DNA of 64,000 nucleotides, from positions 9,289-73,288 of the forward strand of contig CAKZQH010000106.1 in NCBI GenBank assembly GCA_937139565.1. Direction: 5' to 3'. Source of the stretch: an uncultured Nitrospiraceae bacterium. GTDB taxonomy: Bacteria; Nitrospirota; Thermodesulfovibrionia; Thermodesulfovibrionales; Thermodesulfovibrionaceae. Both the position numbers and the translations under genes were made by a program. Shown here one piece after another: positions 42,723-51,303 of this stretch (position 1 is the first letter of the stretch; the number at the start of each line of letters is the position of its first letter). The notes beneath the pieces were generated by a model. That model saw only the letters and a program-made list of their open reading frames with translations, made no database searches and was not told the DNA's origin.

Positions 42723-43052
42723 TTGGATAGTTTAAAAAATATCCACCTAAAATGGCAATTTTTTGCCGTATTACCTTGATAATTTTATACTTCGATACGC
42801 AATTAATCGATTTTTTAGCCATGGTTTGTAGATTGTACAAATTTCTTTAGAGGGCTAAAGGGGATATTAATAAAAAATTTCGTTAAATTTTTTCGGAAGA
42901 TTTTCTTTTGTTGTCCTCATAGCCCTATAACTATTTTAGAAAAATGTTGCAGGAATCCTCGGTATTTTAATGCCGAGATGAAAACAACTACCTGTAATGA
43001 TTATAATTCCTTATTTGATTGATTTTTAAAAGATTTCTTTTATACTATCTGT

Positions 43053-43453
43053 ATGGAGAATCTCATACATGGAAGAACATTAGTTTACAATGTTAATTAT
43101 CATATAGTTTGGAGTGTTAAATATAGACGAGAAATTTTGAAAGATAACATAGCATATACACTTAAAGGCTTACTTTACAGTATTGCAAAAGACAAGGGGT
43201 TCGAAATTAAAACTGTAGAAGTAATGCCTGATCATGTAGATATTTTCGTGTCAGCACATCCAAAATATGCACCATCTTATATTTCAAGATGCTTAAAGGA
43301 ATATCTGGTAGAAAACTTCTATTGCAATTTCCAGAGATTAAGAAGTTTCTGTGGAAAGGTCATTTATGGAATCCCTCTACGTATATTGAGACTATTGGCT
43401 ATATATCTGAGGACACTATCAAGAGGTATATCGAAAATCAGAAAAAGCAATAA
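43053..43453 (+). pseudogene. tnpA: IS200/IS605 Y1 transposase, frameshifted
   Basis: YHIVWSVKYR, DHVDIFV (HUH region); 1-nt deletion near 43283, then a second frame KMLKGISGRK...HLWNPSTYIETIG...RYIENQ to TAA 43451-43453. Confidence 0.9.
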
Positions 43454-44586
43454 TTATTAAAACCTACAAATATAGAATCTATCCTACTGAAAGCCAAAAG
43501 GAATTATTGAATAAACATTTTGGTTGTTGTAGATTTGTTTACAACTACTTCCTTGCATTGAGAAAGGAAAGATACTCTCAAGGTATACCAATCGATGGAT
43601 TTGAATGTAAGAAAATGCTTAAAGAACTTAAAAACCAACATCCATGGCTTAAGGAAGTTAATTCTCAGTTATTACAAGAATTGGTATTAAACCTTGAAAA
43701 GGCATACAGAAGATTTTCCAAAAAACTTGCAGGATATCCACAGTTTAAAAAGAAAAAGAAGTGGCAGACTTTTACTGTTCCGCAATTTTTTAAAGTTATT
43801 GACAACTGTTTATTTATTCCTAAACTACCAAGTGGTATAAAGATCAAGTTACATAGACCAATTATTGGACAGATGAAACGCCTTGTTATTACCAAGACAC
43901 CAACTGGTAAGTTCTTTGCATCAATTACCTGTGAATTAGAAAAGCAACCACTGCCAAAGGTAACAGGTGAAGTTGGAGTAGACCTTGGAGTGAAAAATTT
44001 TGCAACATTATCAACAGGTGAGACAATTGAACATCCAAAATACTTGATAAAATCTATGAAGAGATTAGCATTACTTCAGAGAAGGCTTTGTAGAAAAAAG
44101 AAAGGTTTCAGAAACTGAGAGAAAGCAAGATTACAGGTTGCCAAACTTCATGAGAAAGTAAGAAACCAGCGGGGTGATTTTCTTCACAAGTTATCTTCAA
44201 GGCTTATACACGAAAACCAAGTGATAAGTCTGGAAGACCCTAACGTGAAGGGAATGGTGAAAAATGGAAAACTGTTCAAACACATCTCTGACAGAGGGTG
44301 ATACGAATTCAGGAGACAACTTGAGTATAAAGCGCTGTGGTATGGTAGAGAAATTAGATACACGCCAAGATTTTCAGCATCCAGTAAGACCTGTAACATC
44401 TGTGGGGTTGTTAATCCAGAACTTACATTATCTCAACGAAAGTGGAAATGCTCCAATTGTGGAACCACCCATGATAGAGACATAAATGCAGCGATTAATA
44501 TTCCAGGGTGGAACACACCTGATCTTAAGCCTGTGGAGAGCGTAAATCAATTGGACTCGATGAATCAGGAGTTTACAGGATTTTGA
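43450..44586 (+). pseudogene. tnpB: RNA-guided nuclease TnpB, inactivated
   Basis: IIKTYKYRIYPT, GVDLGVK (RuvC-I), SLED, CNIC/CSNC, DRDINAAINI in one frame; in-frame TGA at 44116 and 44299; no ATG at the expected start. Confidence 0.92.
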
Positions 44587-44621
44587 ACCTGTTGGTATGT
44601 TACTACAAGGAGATATCTTTC

Positions 44622-45467
44622 ATGGTAATAAGTGAAAGAACATTAAAAGAAAGGGATATTTTACAGATACTGATATTAAAAACAATGTTTGAAAAGATAA
44701 GCAAACCAGGAACATTGGTTGTAAAAGGCGGATTTGCTATGAGAGCAACAGCCAAGAGTAGGAGATTTACAAAAGATATAGATCTCTGTGTTGACCCCTC
44801 AATCCCTGTGCATCAAATACAGCAACAGGTAAAGGGTTTTATAAAGTCAGCACTAAAAGACAATCCAGTCGTTGAAAAAACTGTTATAACTGAACCAAAG
44901 CAAACAGAGACTACGTTAAAGTGGAAAATCTGTGGAACCATTGCAGGGACTCCAAATGAAAAAGTCGAACTGACTGTTGAGGTATTTAGGCATAGTATAC
45001 CACCAAGGGATTTTATTACAGCAGTTACTTTCATCCCACCCATTGAATACAACCTATCCCCAATATTGGTAGAAAGCTATTCGTTAGAGGCGTTAATGCT
45101 ATCTAAAATGTTATCTTTGTTATCAGACACGAGGCAAGCGATAAGGGATGTGTATGATGTATTCCTATTAATTAACATAGGGGTTGATGTGAATAAACAA
45201 ATAATTGCATCGTATTTAAAACAAAACAACATAAGCAAAGATGATGCACTGAAAAAAATATGGCAAAAGATGGGTAGTTTTACCTATGAAAGGGCTATAA
45301 ATGAATTATTGCCTTTTTTACCAAAGGCAGAATATATTAGACTTGATGAGACATTTTATGCCCAAATGCGAGCAACCGTAATAGAGCATTTACAGGGGAC
45401 GATAGAAGATTGTTATAAGGGTATACTATCTGACAGTAGTTTTAGTCCAGTAAGTATAATACTTTAA
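44622..45467 (+). CDS. AbiEii/MenT-type nucleotidyltransferase toxin (type IV TA)
   Basis: VVKGGFAMR...RFTKDIDL, KMLSLL...RDVYDVFLL; AAGGAG SD before ATG 44622. Confidence 0.85.
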   Translation: MVISERTLKERDILQILILKTMFEKISKPGTLVVKGGFAMRATAKSRRFTKDIDLCVDPSIPVHQIQQQVKGFIKSALKDNPVVEKTVITEPKQTETTLKWKICGTIAGTPNEKVELTVEVFRHSIPPRDFITAVTFIPPIEYNLSPILVESYSLEALMLSKMLSLLSDTRQAIRDVYDVFLLINIGVDVNKQIIASYLKQNNISKDDALKKIWQKMGSFTYERAINELLPFLPKAEYIRLDETFYAQMRATVIEHLQGTIEDCYKGILSDSSFSPVSIIL

Positions 45468-45474
45468 GCAAAAT

Positions 45475-46182
45475 ATGATGCTTTCGTGGCAAGATAAATT
45501 AGAAATGGAACTACAGGGATATAACAAGATGCGCATTTTAACAACCCCTACTATTATCAGATGGGCTAATTACATAGCAAATAAAAAAAGCCCATTATCG
45601 AATAATAATGTTCATCTTTGGATAAAAAGAATGGTAGCAATGGGTAAGCTTGAACAGGTGACTAAAGGCGTGTACATCAATGCAATGACAACCCCTATTG
45701 TACTACCACAAGAAGCTGCACAGTATATAAGAAAAGGAGCGATTGTTAGTCTCCACTCTTCTTTAATCAACATCTTAAACAATCCAACGAGGATTGTCTT
45801 TGCTATTTTGCCGCTCATCAATGGCAAGGCTAATACTGGAACAGTAGAATCGAAGGTAGGCACATTTAGATTTTTATCTATGCCTAAAAGTCTTCTATAC
45901 GCTGGTTTGGAAAAAGATAGATTGCAAGAAAATAGATTTTGTAAAATAGCAACACCAGAAAAAGCCCTACTGGATTGGCTGTATCTGGCTAAATCACCTA
46001 AGAGTAAATTAACGCCTCCACCGCTGGACATTGAATTGGAAGATCTGGATATGAAGAGATTAAAAAGGCTGTCAAAACTTATGGGATTAGATGATGCGTT
46101 AAATGATTACTTGAAAAAAATATCTGCATATAGACAAGACCCTAATGTCCAGTGTAATGCCTGCACAATATCAAATTTGTGA
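45475..46182 (+). CDS. AbiEi-like antitoxin/transcriptional regulator
   Basis: LEQVTKGVY wHTH wing, AIVSLHSSL, ATPEKALLDWLYL; directly downstream of the toxin. Confidence 0.72.
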   Translation: MMLSWQDKLEMELQGYNKMRILTTPTIIRWANYIANKKSPLSNNNVHLWIKRMVAMGKLEQVTKGVYINAMTTPIVLPQEAAQYIRKGAIVSLHSSLINILNNPTRIVFAILPLINGKANTGTVESKVGTFRFLSMPKSLLYAGLEKDRLQENRFCKIATPEKALLDWLYLAKSPKSKLTPPPLDIELEDLDMKRLKRLSKLMGLDDALNDYLKKISAYRQDPNVQCNACTISNL

Positions 46183-46292
46183 AATTCAAGGCTTATTAAG
46201 ATCTCTTCTCCTGTGAAAATACTAATAAATAGTATTTCTGTAGGAGATAAATTATCATTTAAATCTTATAGTATCTTGATTATTTAGGATAC

Positions 46293-46366
46293 TGTCAACC
46301 CCCTCGTATTAGATCATAGAAAGTGTCTCCGAAATTAGGTTGGTTAGATCAAAATGAAATGTCTCC
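46293..46366 (+). mobile_element. orphan IS terminus (IS21/IS1202-like architecture)
   Basis: Starts TGTCAAC and has two internal repeats TTAGATCATAGAAAGTGTCTCC / TTAGATCAAAATGAAATGTCTCC; no transposase follows. Confidence 0.35.
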
Positions 46367-46442
46367 CAAATGGTAAAATCCCTTCTTGTAAGGAATCTAC
46401 AAGGATGTAGAAAGCTATGGGAAAAGAGAAGGATGGGCTTAC

Positions 46443-46588
46443 ATTTCTGCTTTTAATCCATTGTATTCTACACATAATCTTTCTTCTAAGAGGGTATCAC
46501 GATTAACAAAAGACATGGTTCTAATGAGATTTGTAAAGGATAGAGAGAGCTATGAGGAAGAGAATAAAGGCAGGAAGGGGATCTCTGA
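46443..46588. repeat. 146-bp inverted repeat, left copy
   Basis: Reverse complement aligns without gaps to 50509-50654 with 11 mismatches by my count. Confidence 0.93.
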
Positions 46589-46608
46589 GAACATAGCGTA
46601 TGCATTTT

Positions 46609-47092
46609 GTCACTGTGAGCCTCTCTATGAGGCGAGGCAGTCTCTTACTCCCCCGCATGTCACTGCGAGGCCACGAAGTGGCCGTGGCAGTCTCAAAGTC
46701 CCGTCAGTCACTGCGAGCCTCTCGATGAGGCGAAGCAGTCTCTAAGTAAAGCCTACAAAGAGGCAACTACGAGATCCCTTCGCTTCCGCTCGCAATGACT
46801 CCTCCTCCACCGTCATTCCGAACGAAGTGAGGAATCTCATTTCGTCCAAGTAGGAGGAACGACGAGATCCCTTCGTCGCTTGCGCTCCTTGCAATGACAC
46901 TTCCTTCTTTCGTCACTGCGAGGCCACGAAGTGGCCGTGGCAGTCTCAAAGACCAACGGAATGAGATTGCTTCGTCGCTTACGCTCCTCGCAATGACAGA
47001 AAAGAGGACGCTCGCAATGACAGAAGGGAAAATCCTCGCAATGACTGAAGAGGGAGCAAAGGAGAGATTGCTTCGCTGACGCTCGCAATGAC
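46609..47092. repeat. array of REP-like palindromic units (GTCA[C/T]TGCGAG...GCA[A/G]TCTC), left cluster
   Basis: Nine full units of about 27-36 bp plus two half units, mixed orientation, 12-28 nt spacers; 46659-46694 is identical to 46912-46947; GC-rich against the AT-rich background. Confidence 0.9.
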
Positions 47093-47613
47093 AGGGGAGA
47101 GGAGAGGTTCTAATTGCAAGAATAGAGCGGAACGAAGAGAGATGATCAGATTAGTAAATGAGATAACAAGAGAGGAGGAAATATAGACAGTTAGAGGAAA
47201 AATCGGATGGTTTAAAAATAGCTTAGAGGCATGTAGACTAATTTGTAGATTATAACTCATTGATTTAAAGTGGTTTTTAGGTTCTTAGTGATTAAGTTAA
47301 GCTTCAGATGTTTGGCAAAGAGGTTGAACTGGTTATTCCCACCAGAGAACCTTACAACTCATACTTAGTGCGTCCAAATGAAAAGATGAGGATGAGAAAG
47401 TTCCTGTTACAGATTTATCATGCTTAGTTGACTCAGAGGGAAAAATGACAATTGCTTTTGCAATTCCAACTGAAGGACGAGGGCTAATCTTTAAATCTGA
47501 CGACGAGAATCTTGAACCCAGAGGTAGCGATAGAGGAACTACCGGAGGCGAGATTAGATCTTCCGAAGTTAGAGCTACAATTTTAGCATGATTACGACAA
47601 TCTGCTGTATTTC

Positions 47614-47919
47614 ATGGAAACAGAAGACGAAGAGGGAACTTGCTACTTCATTCATTACGAAGGCGGTAAGCTTAGAATGTTAAAAATAGGACCTGATGGT
47701 GAGGCAGTTGAGGTATTTATTAGATTTGATGGAGATTTACTGGATAAAGACTCTGTTACCGAGGCCATAGAAAATGCGGGTCCAATGTTTGGCGAATGTT
47801 GTAAGGCAGAGATTTGTAAAGATGAACTATCCGTAGTTATTAACCTTGTCAGCGAGAATGGCACTAAGAAGGTGATTAATTTACCTTACGACTTAACTCG
47901 AAAATCGATCTCACATTGA
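47614..47919 (+). CDS. hypothetical protein (possibly gene fragment)
   Basis: 101-aa ORF, no recognised motif, preceded by broken reading frames. Confidence 0.4.
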   Translation: METEDEEGTCYFIHYEGGKLRMLKIGPDGEAVEVFIRFDGDLLDKDSVTEAIENAGPMFGECCKAEICKDELSVVINLVSENGTKKVINLPYDLTRKSISH

Positions 47920-48008
47920 TCAAGTATAAGTTGAGCCTCTGTAAGGTTTACACTGAGAGTAATTGACAGACCTTGCCTTGGCTAGTTGGCCCGAGTATAT
48001 CTCCCCCT

Positions 48009-48056
48009 GTCATTGCGAGCGATGCAAATCTTCATTGCGAGGGGCGAAGCAATCGC
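48009..48056 (+). repeat. degenerate REP-like unit(s)
   Basis: GTCATTGCGAGCGATGCAAATCTTCATTGCGAGGGGCGAAGCAATCGC, same family as 46609-47092. Confidence 0.75.
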
Positions 48057-48832
48057 ACGCCTCATCCTCTAGTATTGCAGTATTCGTCGCATTATGCTAA
48101 GCTGCTAGAGAGCAGTGAGCGCCTGATTGCGAGAGAGATTTGAGCCCGGACCTGAGAATCGGACTATATGTTTGAAAAATAAGGGAAAAATGCAAAATTA
48201 GCTCTTTGAAAAGAGGGTGAGGTTCTCGGGGAATTGAAAATCAACGGGTTGAGCGAGATTTTGAGTTAAAAAAGGGAGAAAAAATGACCAATATCGACAG
48301 AAATTTGGGAGGTTCTTGCAGAAGGCATCTGGAGGCTTTGAGAATAGAGGCTTCTAGATGGGTGCTCCTCAAATACCTTCAGATCAGGAGGGGTTACAAC
48401 CTATATAAGTAGCATTCTGGCGGTGATTTTTATCTTTGAGCTTATCTGCTGCGAGCTCCTTTTCGGAAAGGATTCTCGTAAGTCTCATGTTTTCATTCTC
48501 AAGGATCCAAAACTCTTTGTCTCACTAAATGACATACCATTTGATCTCTGTCTCCGCTTATATCTTACATAAGGTGAGTCAGTGGAGCTCTCACGATATA
48601 TCTCAAACTAAATAGCTACCTGGGAGTTTGTCATCAGAGAGGATCTGCATGATTTTTTCAGAGAGATAATCCGGAAAGGCATCTAAAAGGACAAGGAGAA
48701 AGGTGAAGCCCGCCTTTGTCTCGACGGAGCCAGTGATTTGTATATTGATTTGCCTATTGAAATTGCAATTAGGTATTTTTCTCGACATAGAGTATCAGAG
48801 CCGCTTTGAGGAGCTGGTTATCTCAAGGTCTT

Positions 48833-49180
48833 TTACCGCTTCCTTAGATACATCCACGCATTAAATCCGCATAAAAAGACAGTGAGTATAAAGATAATGT
48901 AACGGGGAAGTTCGATATATACGATTTTTTCTAAGTAATGTGGGATGAATGAGCCTGTATATGAAAAGGCAGGATCATGCTTTGATCTCAGCCATACCTC
49001 AAGGTAGGTGAGGGGGCAGTACCAGTCAAACATCTGGATAATAAAGGCAAAGATGAGACCTGAGATGTGTAATATTTTCATAGCCCTGTACTTTACCCCT
49101 AAGAATGCGCCAAGTATCAAAAAAACTATCCATAGCAAGTGTATCACTACAACTGCATCAGCAAGGATTTTGTAAGGCAA
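48833..49180 (-). CDS. DUF2784 family membrane protein
   Basis: LADAVVVIHLLWIVF, WYCPLTYLEVWLR, YTGSFIPHYLEKIVY. Confidence 0.85.
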   Translation of the reverse strand: MPYKILADAVVVIHLLWIVFLILGAFLGVKYRAMKILHISGLIFAFIIQMFDWYCPLTYLEVWLRSKHDPAFSYTGSFIPHYLEKIVYIELPRYIIFILTVFLCGFNAWMYLRKR

Positions 49181-49403
49181 GTACTACATTCCTCCTCTTT
49201 CCTGCTTCTGGTATTTGAACATATTATGCTTTATTGTCTATTCTTCATGCAGCGAAAAATTGAAATACTCCTTTTAAAAACCATGCCTTAATACCTCCCC
49301 CGCCGGCTTAACCCACCTATGGGTCTCCAATAAATCCAACGTATATCAATGGTGACTATCCTACTTTTTGAAAATATCATGTTTCGCATATTATAATCTC
49401 TCT

Positions 49404-50255
49404 ATGATTGACACGCTCAAGATATTTGAAGACCTGAAGGAGGATATTGCTCCATCCGCTGCAAAGAAGATAGCAGAGACTATCGGAAGAGTCTTTGCAG
49501 AACTGAGGGATACAGTAATAAAAGAGGAATTCGCTGAGCTAAGAAAGATAGTAGCTGAACTAGCCCAGGCTCAAAAGAGAAGTGAGGAGAGGCTAGATAG
49601 ACTAGAGAGAGTGGTAGCTGAGCTTGCAGAGGCTCAGAAAAGAACAGAGCAGAGACTGGAAGAGCTAGCCCAGGCTCAGAAGAAAACAGAGCAGAGACTT
49701 GAGGAGCTAGCCCAAGCCCAGAGGAAAACGGAGCAGAGACTTGAGGAGCTAACCCAAGCTCAGAAGAAAACGGAGCAGAGACTTGAGCAGCTATCCCAAG
49801 CTCAGAGGAAAACTGAAGAAGAACTCAGAGCCCTTATCGGTGAGCATAAAAAGACTAGAGAGCAACTTGGTGGTCTTACTCACACAGTGGGATATGTGCT
49901 TGAAGACAGAGCTTACAAAGGCCTACCTACCCTTCTTGCAAGAGACTTCAATGTAGAGATCACTGAACCTATCAAGCGGGATTTCATTGAACTCTCCCCA
50001 AACGTGTATGAAGAGTTAAACATAATAGGCAGAGGTAGGAGAGAAGGAAGGAGTGTGGTAATACTTGGTGAATGTAAGACTCAGCTTAAGAAAGCTGATA
50101 TAGATGCTTTTCTTAAGCGAGTGAGGAGACTTGAGAAGGCTTTTAGTGAGGAGAGGATTCTTGTTGCAGTTACCTATCAGGCCTCACCGCCAGTAAGAGC
50201 TTATGCGAGTGAGAAGGGAGTCAAGCTTTACTTCTCCTATGAGATGCCCCTTTGA
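49404..50255 (+). CDS. heptad-repeat coiled-coil protein with C-terminal PD-(D/E)XK-like domain
   Basis: LAQAQKKTEQRLEE repeats, GLTHTVGYVLED, ELNIIG...GECK; ATG 49404 lies 7 nt after TATAAT. Confidence 0.8.
   Translation: MIDTLKIFEDLKEDIAPSAAKKIAETIGRVFAELRDTVIKEEFAELRKIVAELAQAQKRSEERLDRLERVVAELAEAQKRTEQRLEELAQAQKKTEQRLEELAQAQRKTEQRLEELTQAQKKTEQRLEQLSQAQRKTEEELRALIGEHKKTREQLGGLTHTVGYVLEDRAYKGLPTLLARDFNVEITEPIKRDFIELSPNVYEELNIIGRGRREGRSVVILGECKTQLKKADIDAFLKRVRRLEKAFSEERILVAVTYQASPPVRAYASEKGVKLYFSYEMPL
49647..49814 (+). repeat. in-frame 42-bp tandem repeat, four units
   Basis: GAGCAGAGACT(G/T)GA...CAGA(A/G)GAAAAC(A/G/T) starting at 49647, 49689, 49731 and 49773. Confidence 0.92.
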
Positions 50256-50390
50256 GAATCAAGAAGGATAGCTCACTACATCTGTTAGATTATTGCTGAT
50301 TCACTATACCTGATATGTTCCATTTCCTGGAACAAAATAACAGCGATGACCTTCCGATCGGGAGTGGTTACTACTCTGTCGACCCTTTCT

Positions 50391-50498
50391 GTCATTGCGA
50401 GCTCCCTCTTCTGTCATTGCGAGGAGCATAAGCGACGAAGCGATCTCATTCCGTTGGTCTTTGAGACTGCCACGGCCACTTCATGGCCTCGCAGTGAC
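50391..50498. repeat. REP-like cluster, right; inverted copy of part of the left array
   Basis: Near-identical reverse complement of about 46912-47021, including the spacer AAAGACCAACGGAAT. Confidence 0.9.
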
Positions 50499-50508
50499 AT
50501 GTGGGGTG

Positions 50509-50654
50509 TCAGAGATCCCTTTCCTGCCTTTATTCTCTCCCTCATAGCTCTCTCTATCCTTTACCAATCTCATTAGAACCATGTCTTTCGTTAATCGTGA
50601 TACCCTCATAGCAGAAAGATTATACTCAGAATACAATGGATTAAAACCAGAAAT
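50509..50654. repeat. 146-bp inverted repeat, right copy
   Basis: Reverse complement of 46443-46588. Confidence 0.93.
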
Positions 50655-50845
50655 CAACGGAGATAGTATTCATCTTTTGATTCAAGTTTTACAGGTAAAG
50701 ATTTCTGATATTAGTAAACGAAGCAAGAGAGTTAGCTTTAAGAAGCGTAAAAGTCATTAGACTACATTAGGTGGGACAGGAAAATAAGAGTCTTTGAAAT
50801 ATTCAGTTTTTTAAATAAAATATGCCCTAAATTGATGAAGTCGGG

Positions 50846-51287
50846 ATACACGAAAACCAAGTGATAAGTCTGGAAGACCTTAATGTGAAGGGAATGGTGA
50901 AAAATGGAAGACTGTCCAAACACATCTCTGACAGTAGGTGGTACGAATTTAGACGTCAACTTGAATATAAAGCGCTGTGGTATGATAGAGAAATTAGATA
51001 CACGCCAAGATTTTCAGCATCCAGTAAGACCTGTAACATCTGTGGGTTTTTTAATCCAGAACTTACATTATCCCAGCGAAAGTGGAAATGCTCTAACTGT
51101 GGAACCATCCATGATAGAGACATAAATGCAGCGATTAATATACGAGGGTGGGACACACCCGAAATAACGCCTGTGGAGACACCACTGGCGGTGGAACAGG
51201 TGCCCAAGCTCCTGGTGTACGAGTCATGTGTCGGTGAAGCAGGAAACTCACGGGATGCAAGGGATTTCAATCCCGTGAGTATATCAC
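50846..51287 (+). mobile_element. 5'-truncated IS605 remnant: tnpB 3' end plus right end
   Basis: About 93% identical by my count to 44206-44500; SLEDL, CNIC/CSNC, DRDINAAINI; hairpin CTCACGGGAT...ATCCCGTGAG followed by TATATCAC. Confidence 0.88.
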
Positions 51288-51303
51288 ATTTAAATGGCAG
51301 ATA
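51146..51303 (+). ncRNA. putative TnpB omegaRNA (scaffold plus flanking guide)
   Basis: GGGACACACCCGAA..AACGCCTGTGGAG...GAAGCAGG...right-end hairpin-TCAC, the layout known for IS605 omegaRNAs; boundaries approximate. Confidence 0.5.

Follow-up and report, generated by a model that had tools for sequence, protein, structure and literature searches.

What does it mean that, in a two-gene module of the AbiE type, the toxin gene comes first and starts just beyond the end of a dead insertion sequence (IS)? The question is raised by a locus within a stretch of 64,000 nucleotides (nt) from an uncultured Nitrospiraceae bacterium (assembly GCA_937139565.1, contig CAKZQH010000106.1, positions 9,289 to 73,288; in our numbering genome G000, contig C106). 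This whole stretch is called the window, all coordinates are positions in it, and the host genome amounts to about 2 Mb. The module and its ribosome-binding site are laid out as follows.

44607 to 44612, plus strand: Shine-Dalgarno sequence AAGGAG, read from the sequence, 9 nt before the toxin ATG.
44622 to 45467, plus strand: abiEii, an intact gene of 281 amino acids (aa) for an AbiEii/MenT-type nucleotidyltransferase toxin.
45475 to 46182, plus strand: abiEi-like antitoxin gene of 235 aa, with an N-terminal winged helix and a C-terminal domain.

The initial annotation had called this an AbiE-type (type IV) toxin-antitoxin or defence module, and the call is upheld for both proteins by hidden Markov models (HMMs) and by predicted fold. 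Because these HMM matches and models agree and the catalytic and phosphoacceptor residues are kept, we read the locus as an intact AbiE/MenAT-type module with the toxin in front. The two genes lie on the same strand with a gap of 7 nt, no terminator-like site was seen between them, and the layout is that of one operon. Our overall reading, to which we give a probability of about 0.7, is that an intact AbiE operon of a toxin-first clade has had its promoter replaced by the end of a dead IS, is transcribed from or through that IS and has its antitoxin translationally coupled to the toxin. The module as such is ordinary and its setting mildly unusual, and the current understanding of such systems is not overturned by it.

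The toxin open reading frame (ORF) starts with the ATG at 44622, and not at 44623, and its N-terminus lines up with the starts of its homologs in the alignment. It matches Pfam AbiEii (PF08843) with an E-value of 8.6e-20 (72 bits against a cut-off of 22.5) and 23 AbiEii models of PADLOC, the best at 1e-18. All the residues that are invariant in the subfamily, as judged from an alignment of 34 homologs, are present in the window toxin: KGG35-37, R48, T50, K51, D52, D54, EPKQT91-95, K162, R171, R175, D176 and D179. These include the Pol-beta-type signature of DUF1814 (PF08843), with motif I GG...R-x-[ST]-[KR]-D-x-D followed downstream by K and by RD...D. A structure predicted from the homolog alignment reached a predicted local distance difference test score (pLDDT) of 94.3, and its matches in the PDB were JHP933 (1e-10), MenT3/TglT (about 1e-8) and also MenT4, while the sequence profile of the toxin family matched JHP933 and AbiGII. 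Going by these residues and folds, the window toxin is a nucleotidyltransferase of the DUF1814/AbiEii/MenT family with a complete active site. Its loop R48-F-T50-K-D52-I-D54 corresponds to R37-F-T39-R-D41-x-D43 of MenT1 and to R76-x-S78-K-D80 of MenT3, where the toxin, at the prompting of the antitoxin, phosphorylates itself on the Thr or Ser (PMC11375011). By analogy with MenT, the toxin is predicted to add nucleotides to tRNA 3' ends, which would halt translation, and to be neutralised by antitoxin-induced autophosphorylation; this would take place at Thr50, a phosphoacceptor position that is conserved.

The antitoxin matches 17 AbiEi models of PADLOC, best of all PDLC02241 (9e-15). Its AlphaFold model, also predicted from an alignment of homologs, has a pLDDT of 94.1, and the top match of this model in the PDB is the Streptococcus agalactiae AbiEi 6Y8Q (E-value = 1.6e-6, probability 1.0) over the full length. 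As modelled, the second gene is a divergent AbiEi that joins a winged-helix DNA-binding domain to a C-terminal antitoxin domain. The family is represented by about 880 cluster representatives.

Two side observations concern this antitoxin. An AbiEi-like domain was also met at the C-terminus of much longer library proteins, P0252 (526 aa), P0226 (407 aa) and P0298 (1144 aa), and the length of P0252 equals that of toxin and antitoxin summed; these proteins could be natural fusions or the product of missed stop codons. In addition, the 5' end of the antitoxin gene (45500-45560) differs from a second copy of the module (L003, described below) by about 14 substitutions in 60 nt, whereas the copies are about 99% identical elsewhere, and this patch could be a small recombination tract or a local diversifying change.

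The toxin gene does precede the antitoxin gene, as initially annotated. That this reversed order is peculiar to the locus was not borne out, since the order is fixed across its clade. When the toxin alignment was run against 185,579 species genomes, 39 loci were retrieved, from Pseudomonadota, Acidobacteriota, Chlamydiota and Syntrophorhabdus, and in every one of the 38 with enough downstream sequence an AbiEi-like gene lies directly 3' of the toxin gene on the same strand. The nearest assembly relatives (L137 and L138) are toxin-first too, and so are two loci on RefSeq plasmids, those of Bosea (pBSY19_1; L139) and of Acidiphilium multivorum (L140). In both plasmid loci RefSeq names the toxin 'AbiEii/AbiGii toxin family protein' and gives the next gene, the AbiEi-like partner, as 'hypothetical protein'. 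Within Nitrospirota, PF08843 was found in 96 of 301 genomes; among 70 sampled loci the AbiEi gene is upstream in 40 and downstream in 5, a small unnamed ORF is upstream in 13 and the arrangement is unresolved in 12. Three representatives of the five loci with a downstream AbiEi match PADLOC AbiEi, two of them PDLC02241 at about 1e-25.

When 102 toxins are placed on a maximum-likelihood tree, 2 changes suffice to explain their gene order; shuffling the labels raises the mean to about 29. The count is approximate, as the tree is a quick LG+G4 one with several long branches. The window toxin falls in a clade of 20 that is entirely toxin-first, with a support of 96 in the Shimodaira-Hasegawa-like approximate likelihood ratio test (SH-aLRT), and this clade is nested in a group of 34 with 33 toxin-first members (SH-aLRT 92). 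The sister of the window toxin is a Syntrophorhabdus protein of 38% identity. Across the sampled loci, then, the order is unusual in comparison with the tested systems and normal for its own lineage. Although the antitoxin-first layout is not found here, we file the pair under AbiE, because order concerns layout and not components.

The initial annotation had also considered that reverse order might prove to be both common and characterised in this subfamily. Common it is, but not characterised: the tested AbiE and MenAT systems that we found are all antitoxin-first, namely the AbiE systems of S. agalactiae and of lactococci, MenAT1-4 and three AbiE systems of Serratia, as is the pair JHP933/jhp0932 (PMC3985639, PMC7450476, PMC7725324). 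Literature searches for a described or tested toxin-first AbiE found none. The AbiE of Mesorhizobium huakuii (PMC8436566) was considered as a characterised member of the clade and set aside, since the canonical order is what its locus tags and primers point to. The Discussion of PMC11375011 holds a passage at odds with the antitoxin-first order of the systems tested there and in its predecessors; it may be loose wording or a reference to toxin-first clades, and the data behind it were not traced. As a further observation, the small upstream ORFs of Nitrospirota AbiEii loci (L110, L112, L121, L123-L127, L129; L126, L131, L132, L135, L136) fall into clusters of 83-122 aa and 128-146 aa. One representative per cluster gave no match in PADLOC, and these ORFs may be unnamed antitoxin families.

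What sets this locus apart is the DNA upstream of the toxin, where an element of the IS200/IS605 family ends. This element and the features needed to place its limit are given below.

42775 to 44603, plus strand: decayed IS200/IS605 copy 1 with left end, tnpA, tnpB and right end RE1; its left end folds with z = -2.9, and RE1 is homologous to RE2 through the last base.
43053 to 43453, plus strand: tnpA pseudogene for a Y1 transposase (Y1_Tnp, E-value = 4.9e-21).
43456 to 44585, plus strand: tnpB pseudogene, with ATT at the start position and in-frame TGA codons at 44116-44118 and 44299-44301.
44540 to 44603, plus strand: right end RE1 of copy 1, a shortened omegaRNA-scaffold region with a terminal hairpin of only 5 bp (44575-44592).
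44572 to 44601, plus strand: promoter-like TTTACA-18-TATGTT with TG, inside RE1 and directed toward the toxin; from a consensus scan, candidate only.
50846 to 51287, plus strand: 3' fragment of a second tnpB (copy 2) with right end RE2, which has an 11-bp hairpin and forms the right limit of the island described below.

The placement of the IS end at 44603, 18 nt before the toxin start, is supported. The similarity between the two copies ends at 44539 and returns at a KQE-type motif, the hairpin and the terminal GTATnTnAC, and the right ends are homologous base by base (...TGGTATGTTAC against ...GAGTATATCAC, the latter ending at 51287). RE1 terminates in ...CCTGTTGGTATGTTAC at 44603 and RE2 in ...CCCGTGAGTATATCAC at 51287, a limit set independently by the empty site of two congeners. 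The 18 nt TACAAGGAGATATCTTTC are the sole sequence between the IS end and the ATG. RE1 folds no better than shuffled sequence (z = +0.87), while the left end (z = -2.9) and RE2 (z = -2.5) do, and RE1 looks degenerate.

Both genes of copy 1 are broken. The tnpA gene has a frameshift near 43285, after which its C-terminal part goes on as an ORF at 43289-43453; what we take to be its HUH motif reads H-V-D in the translation. The tnpB gene shares 60% identity with TnpB proteins (E-value = 4e-140), homologs that carry PF12323, PF01385 and PF07282. At its second TGA (44299) copy 2 has TGG and a homolog has W, and its first (44116) lines up with R in a homolog, the original codon having probably been CGA. 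Recoding of TGA as Trp was considered and rejected, as one of the codons stands at an R position and the host genes read normally under table 11; going by these alignments, both are ordinary nonsense mutations. The initial annotation had also pointed out that the guide of the would-be omegaRNA is the Shine-Dalgarno sequence of the toxin. This is true by construction, as it would be at any IS605 flank, and is of no consequence with tnpB a pseudogene.

The known members IS608 and ISDra2 share with this element the Y1 transposase together with TnpB and the lack of terminal inverted repeats; a left end next to TTAC and a right end 3' of the tnpB region that encodes the omegaRNA scaffold, as placed here, would also agree with that family. 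They differ from it in that both genes are pseudogenes in the window, the right-end hairpin is only 5 bp and a second right end 6.7 kb downstream closes a cargo island. Searches for further copies found no other full one in the genome itself, just a 334-nt fragment (50846-51179, 92% identical to 44206-44539), nothing useful in 30 relatives, and six chance matches but no copy when a 20-nt right-end pattern was run against metagenome contigs. An Rfam scan of the window returned a cobalamin riboswitch, a tRNA-Sec and a fluoride riboswitch only, with no omegaRNA or other family in 42-47 kb. No tblastn match to TnpA or TnpB was obtained near other AbiEii loci (about 110). A conserved link between the AbiE clade and IS605 is rejected on this count, and the adjacency of the IS is specific to the lineage of the window, because those roughly 110 loci are without either gene.

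The promoter of the operon was claimed to be displaced by the IS, and the comparison with relatives agrees, in that the promoter and operator that they have at this position are missing here. In relatives a sigma-70-like -35/-10 pair is placed inside a long inverted repeat, at most about 70 nt upstream of the toxin start. The palindrome reads TTGAtTAAGTGTGATAGCATCATATAATGATGCTATCaCACTTAA in the Steroidobacteraceae group, ATAATAC..TTGACAnnnnTGTCAA..GTATTAT in the Chlamydiota/Acidobacteriota group and TGTATTGAG-N24-CTCAATACA, abutting the ATG, at the Syntrophorhabdus locus, and the relative L015 has one of its own, TTGATTAAGTGTGATAGCATCATATAATGATGCTATCGCACTTAA. By analogy with the autoregulation of AbiEi and MenA3, this palindrome is presumed to be the operator of AbiEi. 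No such promoter and palindrome (-20 to -70 in relatives) was found upstream of the window toxin.

With the promoter of the relatives missing, operon transcription now probably comes from or through the dead IS. For the omegaRNA guide of TnpB systems to be made, transcription in elements of the IS605 type has to run across the right end, and read-through into the toxin is plausible for that reason; no terminator-like site was detected between tnpB and toxin in a scan of the window. The source would be either read-through from the tnpA promoter, as for omegaRNA, or the promoter-like site in the right end, TTTACA-18-TATGTT, which is the only such site facing the toxin in the consensus scan. Concerning translation, the antitoxin starts 7 nt past the toxin stop without a Shine-Dalgarno sequence. 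Its start overlaps the toxin stop by 4 nt in 19 of 38 relatives, which points to translational coupling, and the antitoxin of the window may likewise be translated by coupling to the toxin, without a promoter of its own.

The pair belongs to a strain-specific island of 8.5 kb (42775-51287) between trpE and nrdD, whose left side is marked by one further feature.

42771 to 42774, plus strand: TTAC, the presumed IS200/IS605 target, immediately left of the island.

We take TTAC to be the target site by analogy with IS608. On the right, the nrdD stop codon (51290-51292) adjoins the end of RE2 with 2 nt between them. Two congeners (G002 and G012) have an empty site, with the trpE start directly beside the nrdD stop, and the joined flanks of the window (...GCCGTATTAC / ATTTAAATGG...) are colinear with it without visible target duplication. 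Within the genus, 18 other species lack the AbiE pair. The island holds, in this order, IS copy 1, the AbiE pair, a 101-aa ORF, a DUF2784 gene, a coiled-coil protein and the tnpB fragment with RE2. The coiled-coil protein (49368-50255, 295 aa) has tandem coiled-coil repeats (AELAQAQKKTEQRLEEL...), and its C-terminus weakly resembles an inactive restriction-endonuclease domain (NA-iREase3, E-value = 0.002).

As the island starts after TTAC and ends exactly at RE2, it possibly moved as one composite IS605 transposon, an IS pasted 3' of TTAC between trpE and nrdD along with a 6.2-kb cargo to which the AbiE pair belongs. We hold this origin as a tentative one, with the odds against it; the island could also have arisen when two IS copies recombined. 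If it was a composite, TnpA would have skipped the weakened inner RE1 with its 5-bp hairpin and used the distal RE2, and the AbiE operon would have lost its palindromic promoter/operator on joining RE1. The pair would then act as an addiction or defence module that keeps the element stable, transcribed constitutively from the IS and free of autoregulation. More generally, the module would most likely serve the island as an addiction or abortive-infection module.

Several points weigh against the reading of an intact, IS-transcribed AbiE operon. The homologs on which the predicted toxicity, neutralisation, tRNA target and phage defence are modelled share 12-16% identity with the window protein in structural alignments. 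The antitoxin lies below the threshold of Pfam (AbiEi_4, E-value = 0.054) and of NCBIfam (19.5 bits against 150). Its sequence profile has no match in the PDB at an E-value of 1 or less, AbiEi being found there by the fold search only, and the TM-score against 6Y8Q is only 0.46/0.52, so that the assignment relies on the PADLOC models and the predicted fold. The exact IS end is placed by homology to one other right end and not to multiple copies. The scan that lists TTTACA-18-TATGTT is at chance overall (16 sites against 15.6 expected), and IS-driven expression, indeed any expression, of the pair is unproven. Finally, a copy about 99% identical exists in Thermodesulfovibrio hydrogeniphilus (GCA_054657355.1; L003:5400-7500), which covers only window positions 44754 to about 45966. 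In this copy the toxin gene lacks its initial 44 codons and with them the KGG motif, and the truncated antitoxin is followed just downstream by an IS3-family element in an unrelated, IS-rich context. Truncation of this copy at both ends indicates that the module is dispensable and can decay.

These facts also feed an alternative, in which the pair is a promoterless, silent remnant heading for decay, cut off from its promoter and operator by the IS or by the event that built the island. It accounts for the absence of the native promoter and palindrome, for a sister-strain copy already truncated at both ends and for the absence of the module from 18 congeners, and none of the promoter predictions exceeds chance. 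Against it, both AbiE ORFs are full length with all invariant residues, while the neighbouring tnpA and tnpB have gained a frameshift and two stops; a good Shine-Dalgarno sequence is retained 9 nt before the ATG; and the pair is not separated from the IS by a terminator. We consider a silent remnant unlikely and keep to an intact operon probably transcribed from or through the IS.

A separate proposal concerned the antitoxin, which according to the initial annotation could be driven by a promoter inside the toxin gene.

45430 to 45460, plus strand: CTGACA-19-TATAAT, inside the 3' end of the toxin gene; present in the sequence.

The motif is real, with a perfect -10 box and 5 of 6 matches in the -35 box just upstream of the antitoxin start, and sites of such quality number only 3 in 64 kb. 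Other toxin-first families are known to have internal promoters for the antitoxin, and a site of this kind would drive the antitoxin separately, as in higBA and mqsRA. Yet that number is what chance gives, as Markov-1 simulations yielded 1.9 +/- 1.4 sites with at least 5/6 at -35, a spacer of 16-19 nt and a perfect TATAAT. The spacer of 19 nt is non-standard, outside the usual 16-18, which leaves the site unlisted by the standard scan, and the nearest relatives (L005, L137 and L138) have no CTGACA-19-TATAAT at the corresponding position. Moreover, the transcript would carry a leader of about 7 nt without a Shine-Dalgarno sequence, and the stop/start overlap in 19 of 38 relatives implies coupling instead. 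A separate antitoxin promoter is therefore improbable, and coupled translation remains our preferred reading.

It may also be asked whether the stretch 44572-44621 belongs to the IS at all, or whether it is AbiE's own promoter and operator next to a 3'-truncated IS, with the hairpin ACAGG-N8-CCTGT as the AbiEi operator. Its layout (a -35 box, an inverted repeat, a -10 box and, 20 nt further, the ATG) is similar to that of relatives, and the region shows no significant single-strand structure (z = +0.87) and, compared with the 3' ends of related tnpB genes, falls short by at least 75 nt. But the alignment of the stretch with RE2 extends over the KQE-type motif and the hairpin to the terminal GTATnTnAC, the tnpB frame continues through it to 44585 and the repeat arms measure 5 bp here against 7-20 bp in relatives, all of which makes this explanation very doubtful. 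That the pair is not a toxin-antitoxin system but a nucleotidyltransferase for another substrate (a small molecule or an antibiotic) with a mere regulator is hardly credible: experiments exist for no member of the toxin-first clade and non-toxin nucleotidyltransferases do appear at lower ranks of the structure search as resembling the DUF1814 fold, but the highest-ranking matches (JHP933, MenT3, MenT4, AbiGII) are toxins or candidates for toxins, the partner has the AbiEi fold, the two genes stay strictly paired across phyla and their loci occur in mobile contexts.

Among the closest known systems are the AbiE operons of S. agalactiae and of Lactococcus lactis plasmid pNP40 (PMC3985639; 6Y8Q), likewise two-gene operons with a DUF1814 toxin and a two-domain winged-helix antitoxin; S. 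agalactiae has palindromes at its AbiE promoter, as do the relatives of the window pair. In the clade of the window the order is reversed, so that the promoter/operator precedes the toxin gene, the window antitoxin has diverged beyond the reach of the Pfam and NCBIfam thresholds and an IS end replaces its promoter/operator. MenAT3 (Rv1044-Rv1045) and MenAT1 of Mycobacterium tuberculosis (PMC7450476, PMC11375011) share the toxin fold and the R-x-[ST]-[KR]-D-x-D loop, and MenA3 is an antitoxin of the AbiEi/COG5340 type, like that of the window pair; identity is 12-15% in structural alignments, and in the mycobacterial pairs the antitoxin gene comes first. JHP933 of Helicobacter pylori (4O8S, 4OK0), the best match of the toxin by both profile and structure, is also found in mobile DNA, that of a plasticity zone, but its presumed partner jhp0932 lies upstream (PMC7450476). 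Toxin genes also come first in the single operons of higBA, hicAB and mqsRA, whose proteins (RNases with helix-turn-helix antitoxins) are unrelated and whose internal antitoxin promoters have no supported counterpart here.

Reversed order is, as far as the surveyed genomes show, the norm of a widespread and experimentally untouched clade. The AbiEi partners of this clade are called 'hypothetical protein' in RefSeq and are missed by Pfam and NCBIfam, which leaves half of each module unrecognised. The clade places a presumed operator on the toxin promoter and probably couples translation of the antitoxin to that of the toxin, whereas every tested AbiE/MenAT is antitoxin-first, and it offers a natural test of the idea that a catalytic antitoxin, one that induces autophosphorylation of the toxin, need not be made first or in excess. 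The locus described here amounts to a natural 'promoter swap', with an IS end in place of the operator, and the intact window copy next to the decayed one of the sister strain offers a comparison on what keeps such a module alive. If the composite origin of the island were true, it would be a natural single-strand 'peel-and-paste' IS with a defence-type cargo.

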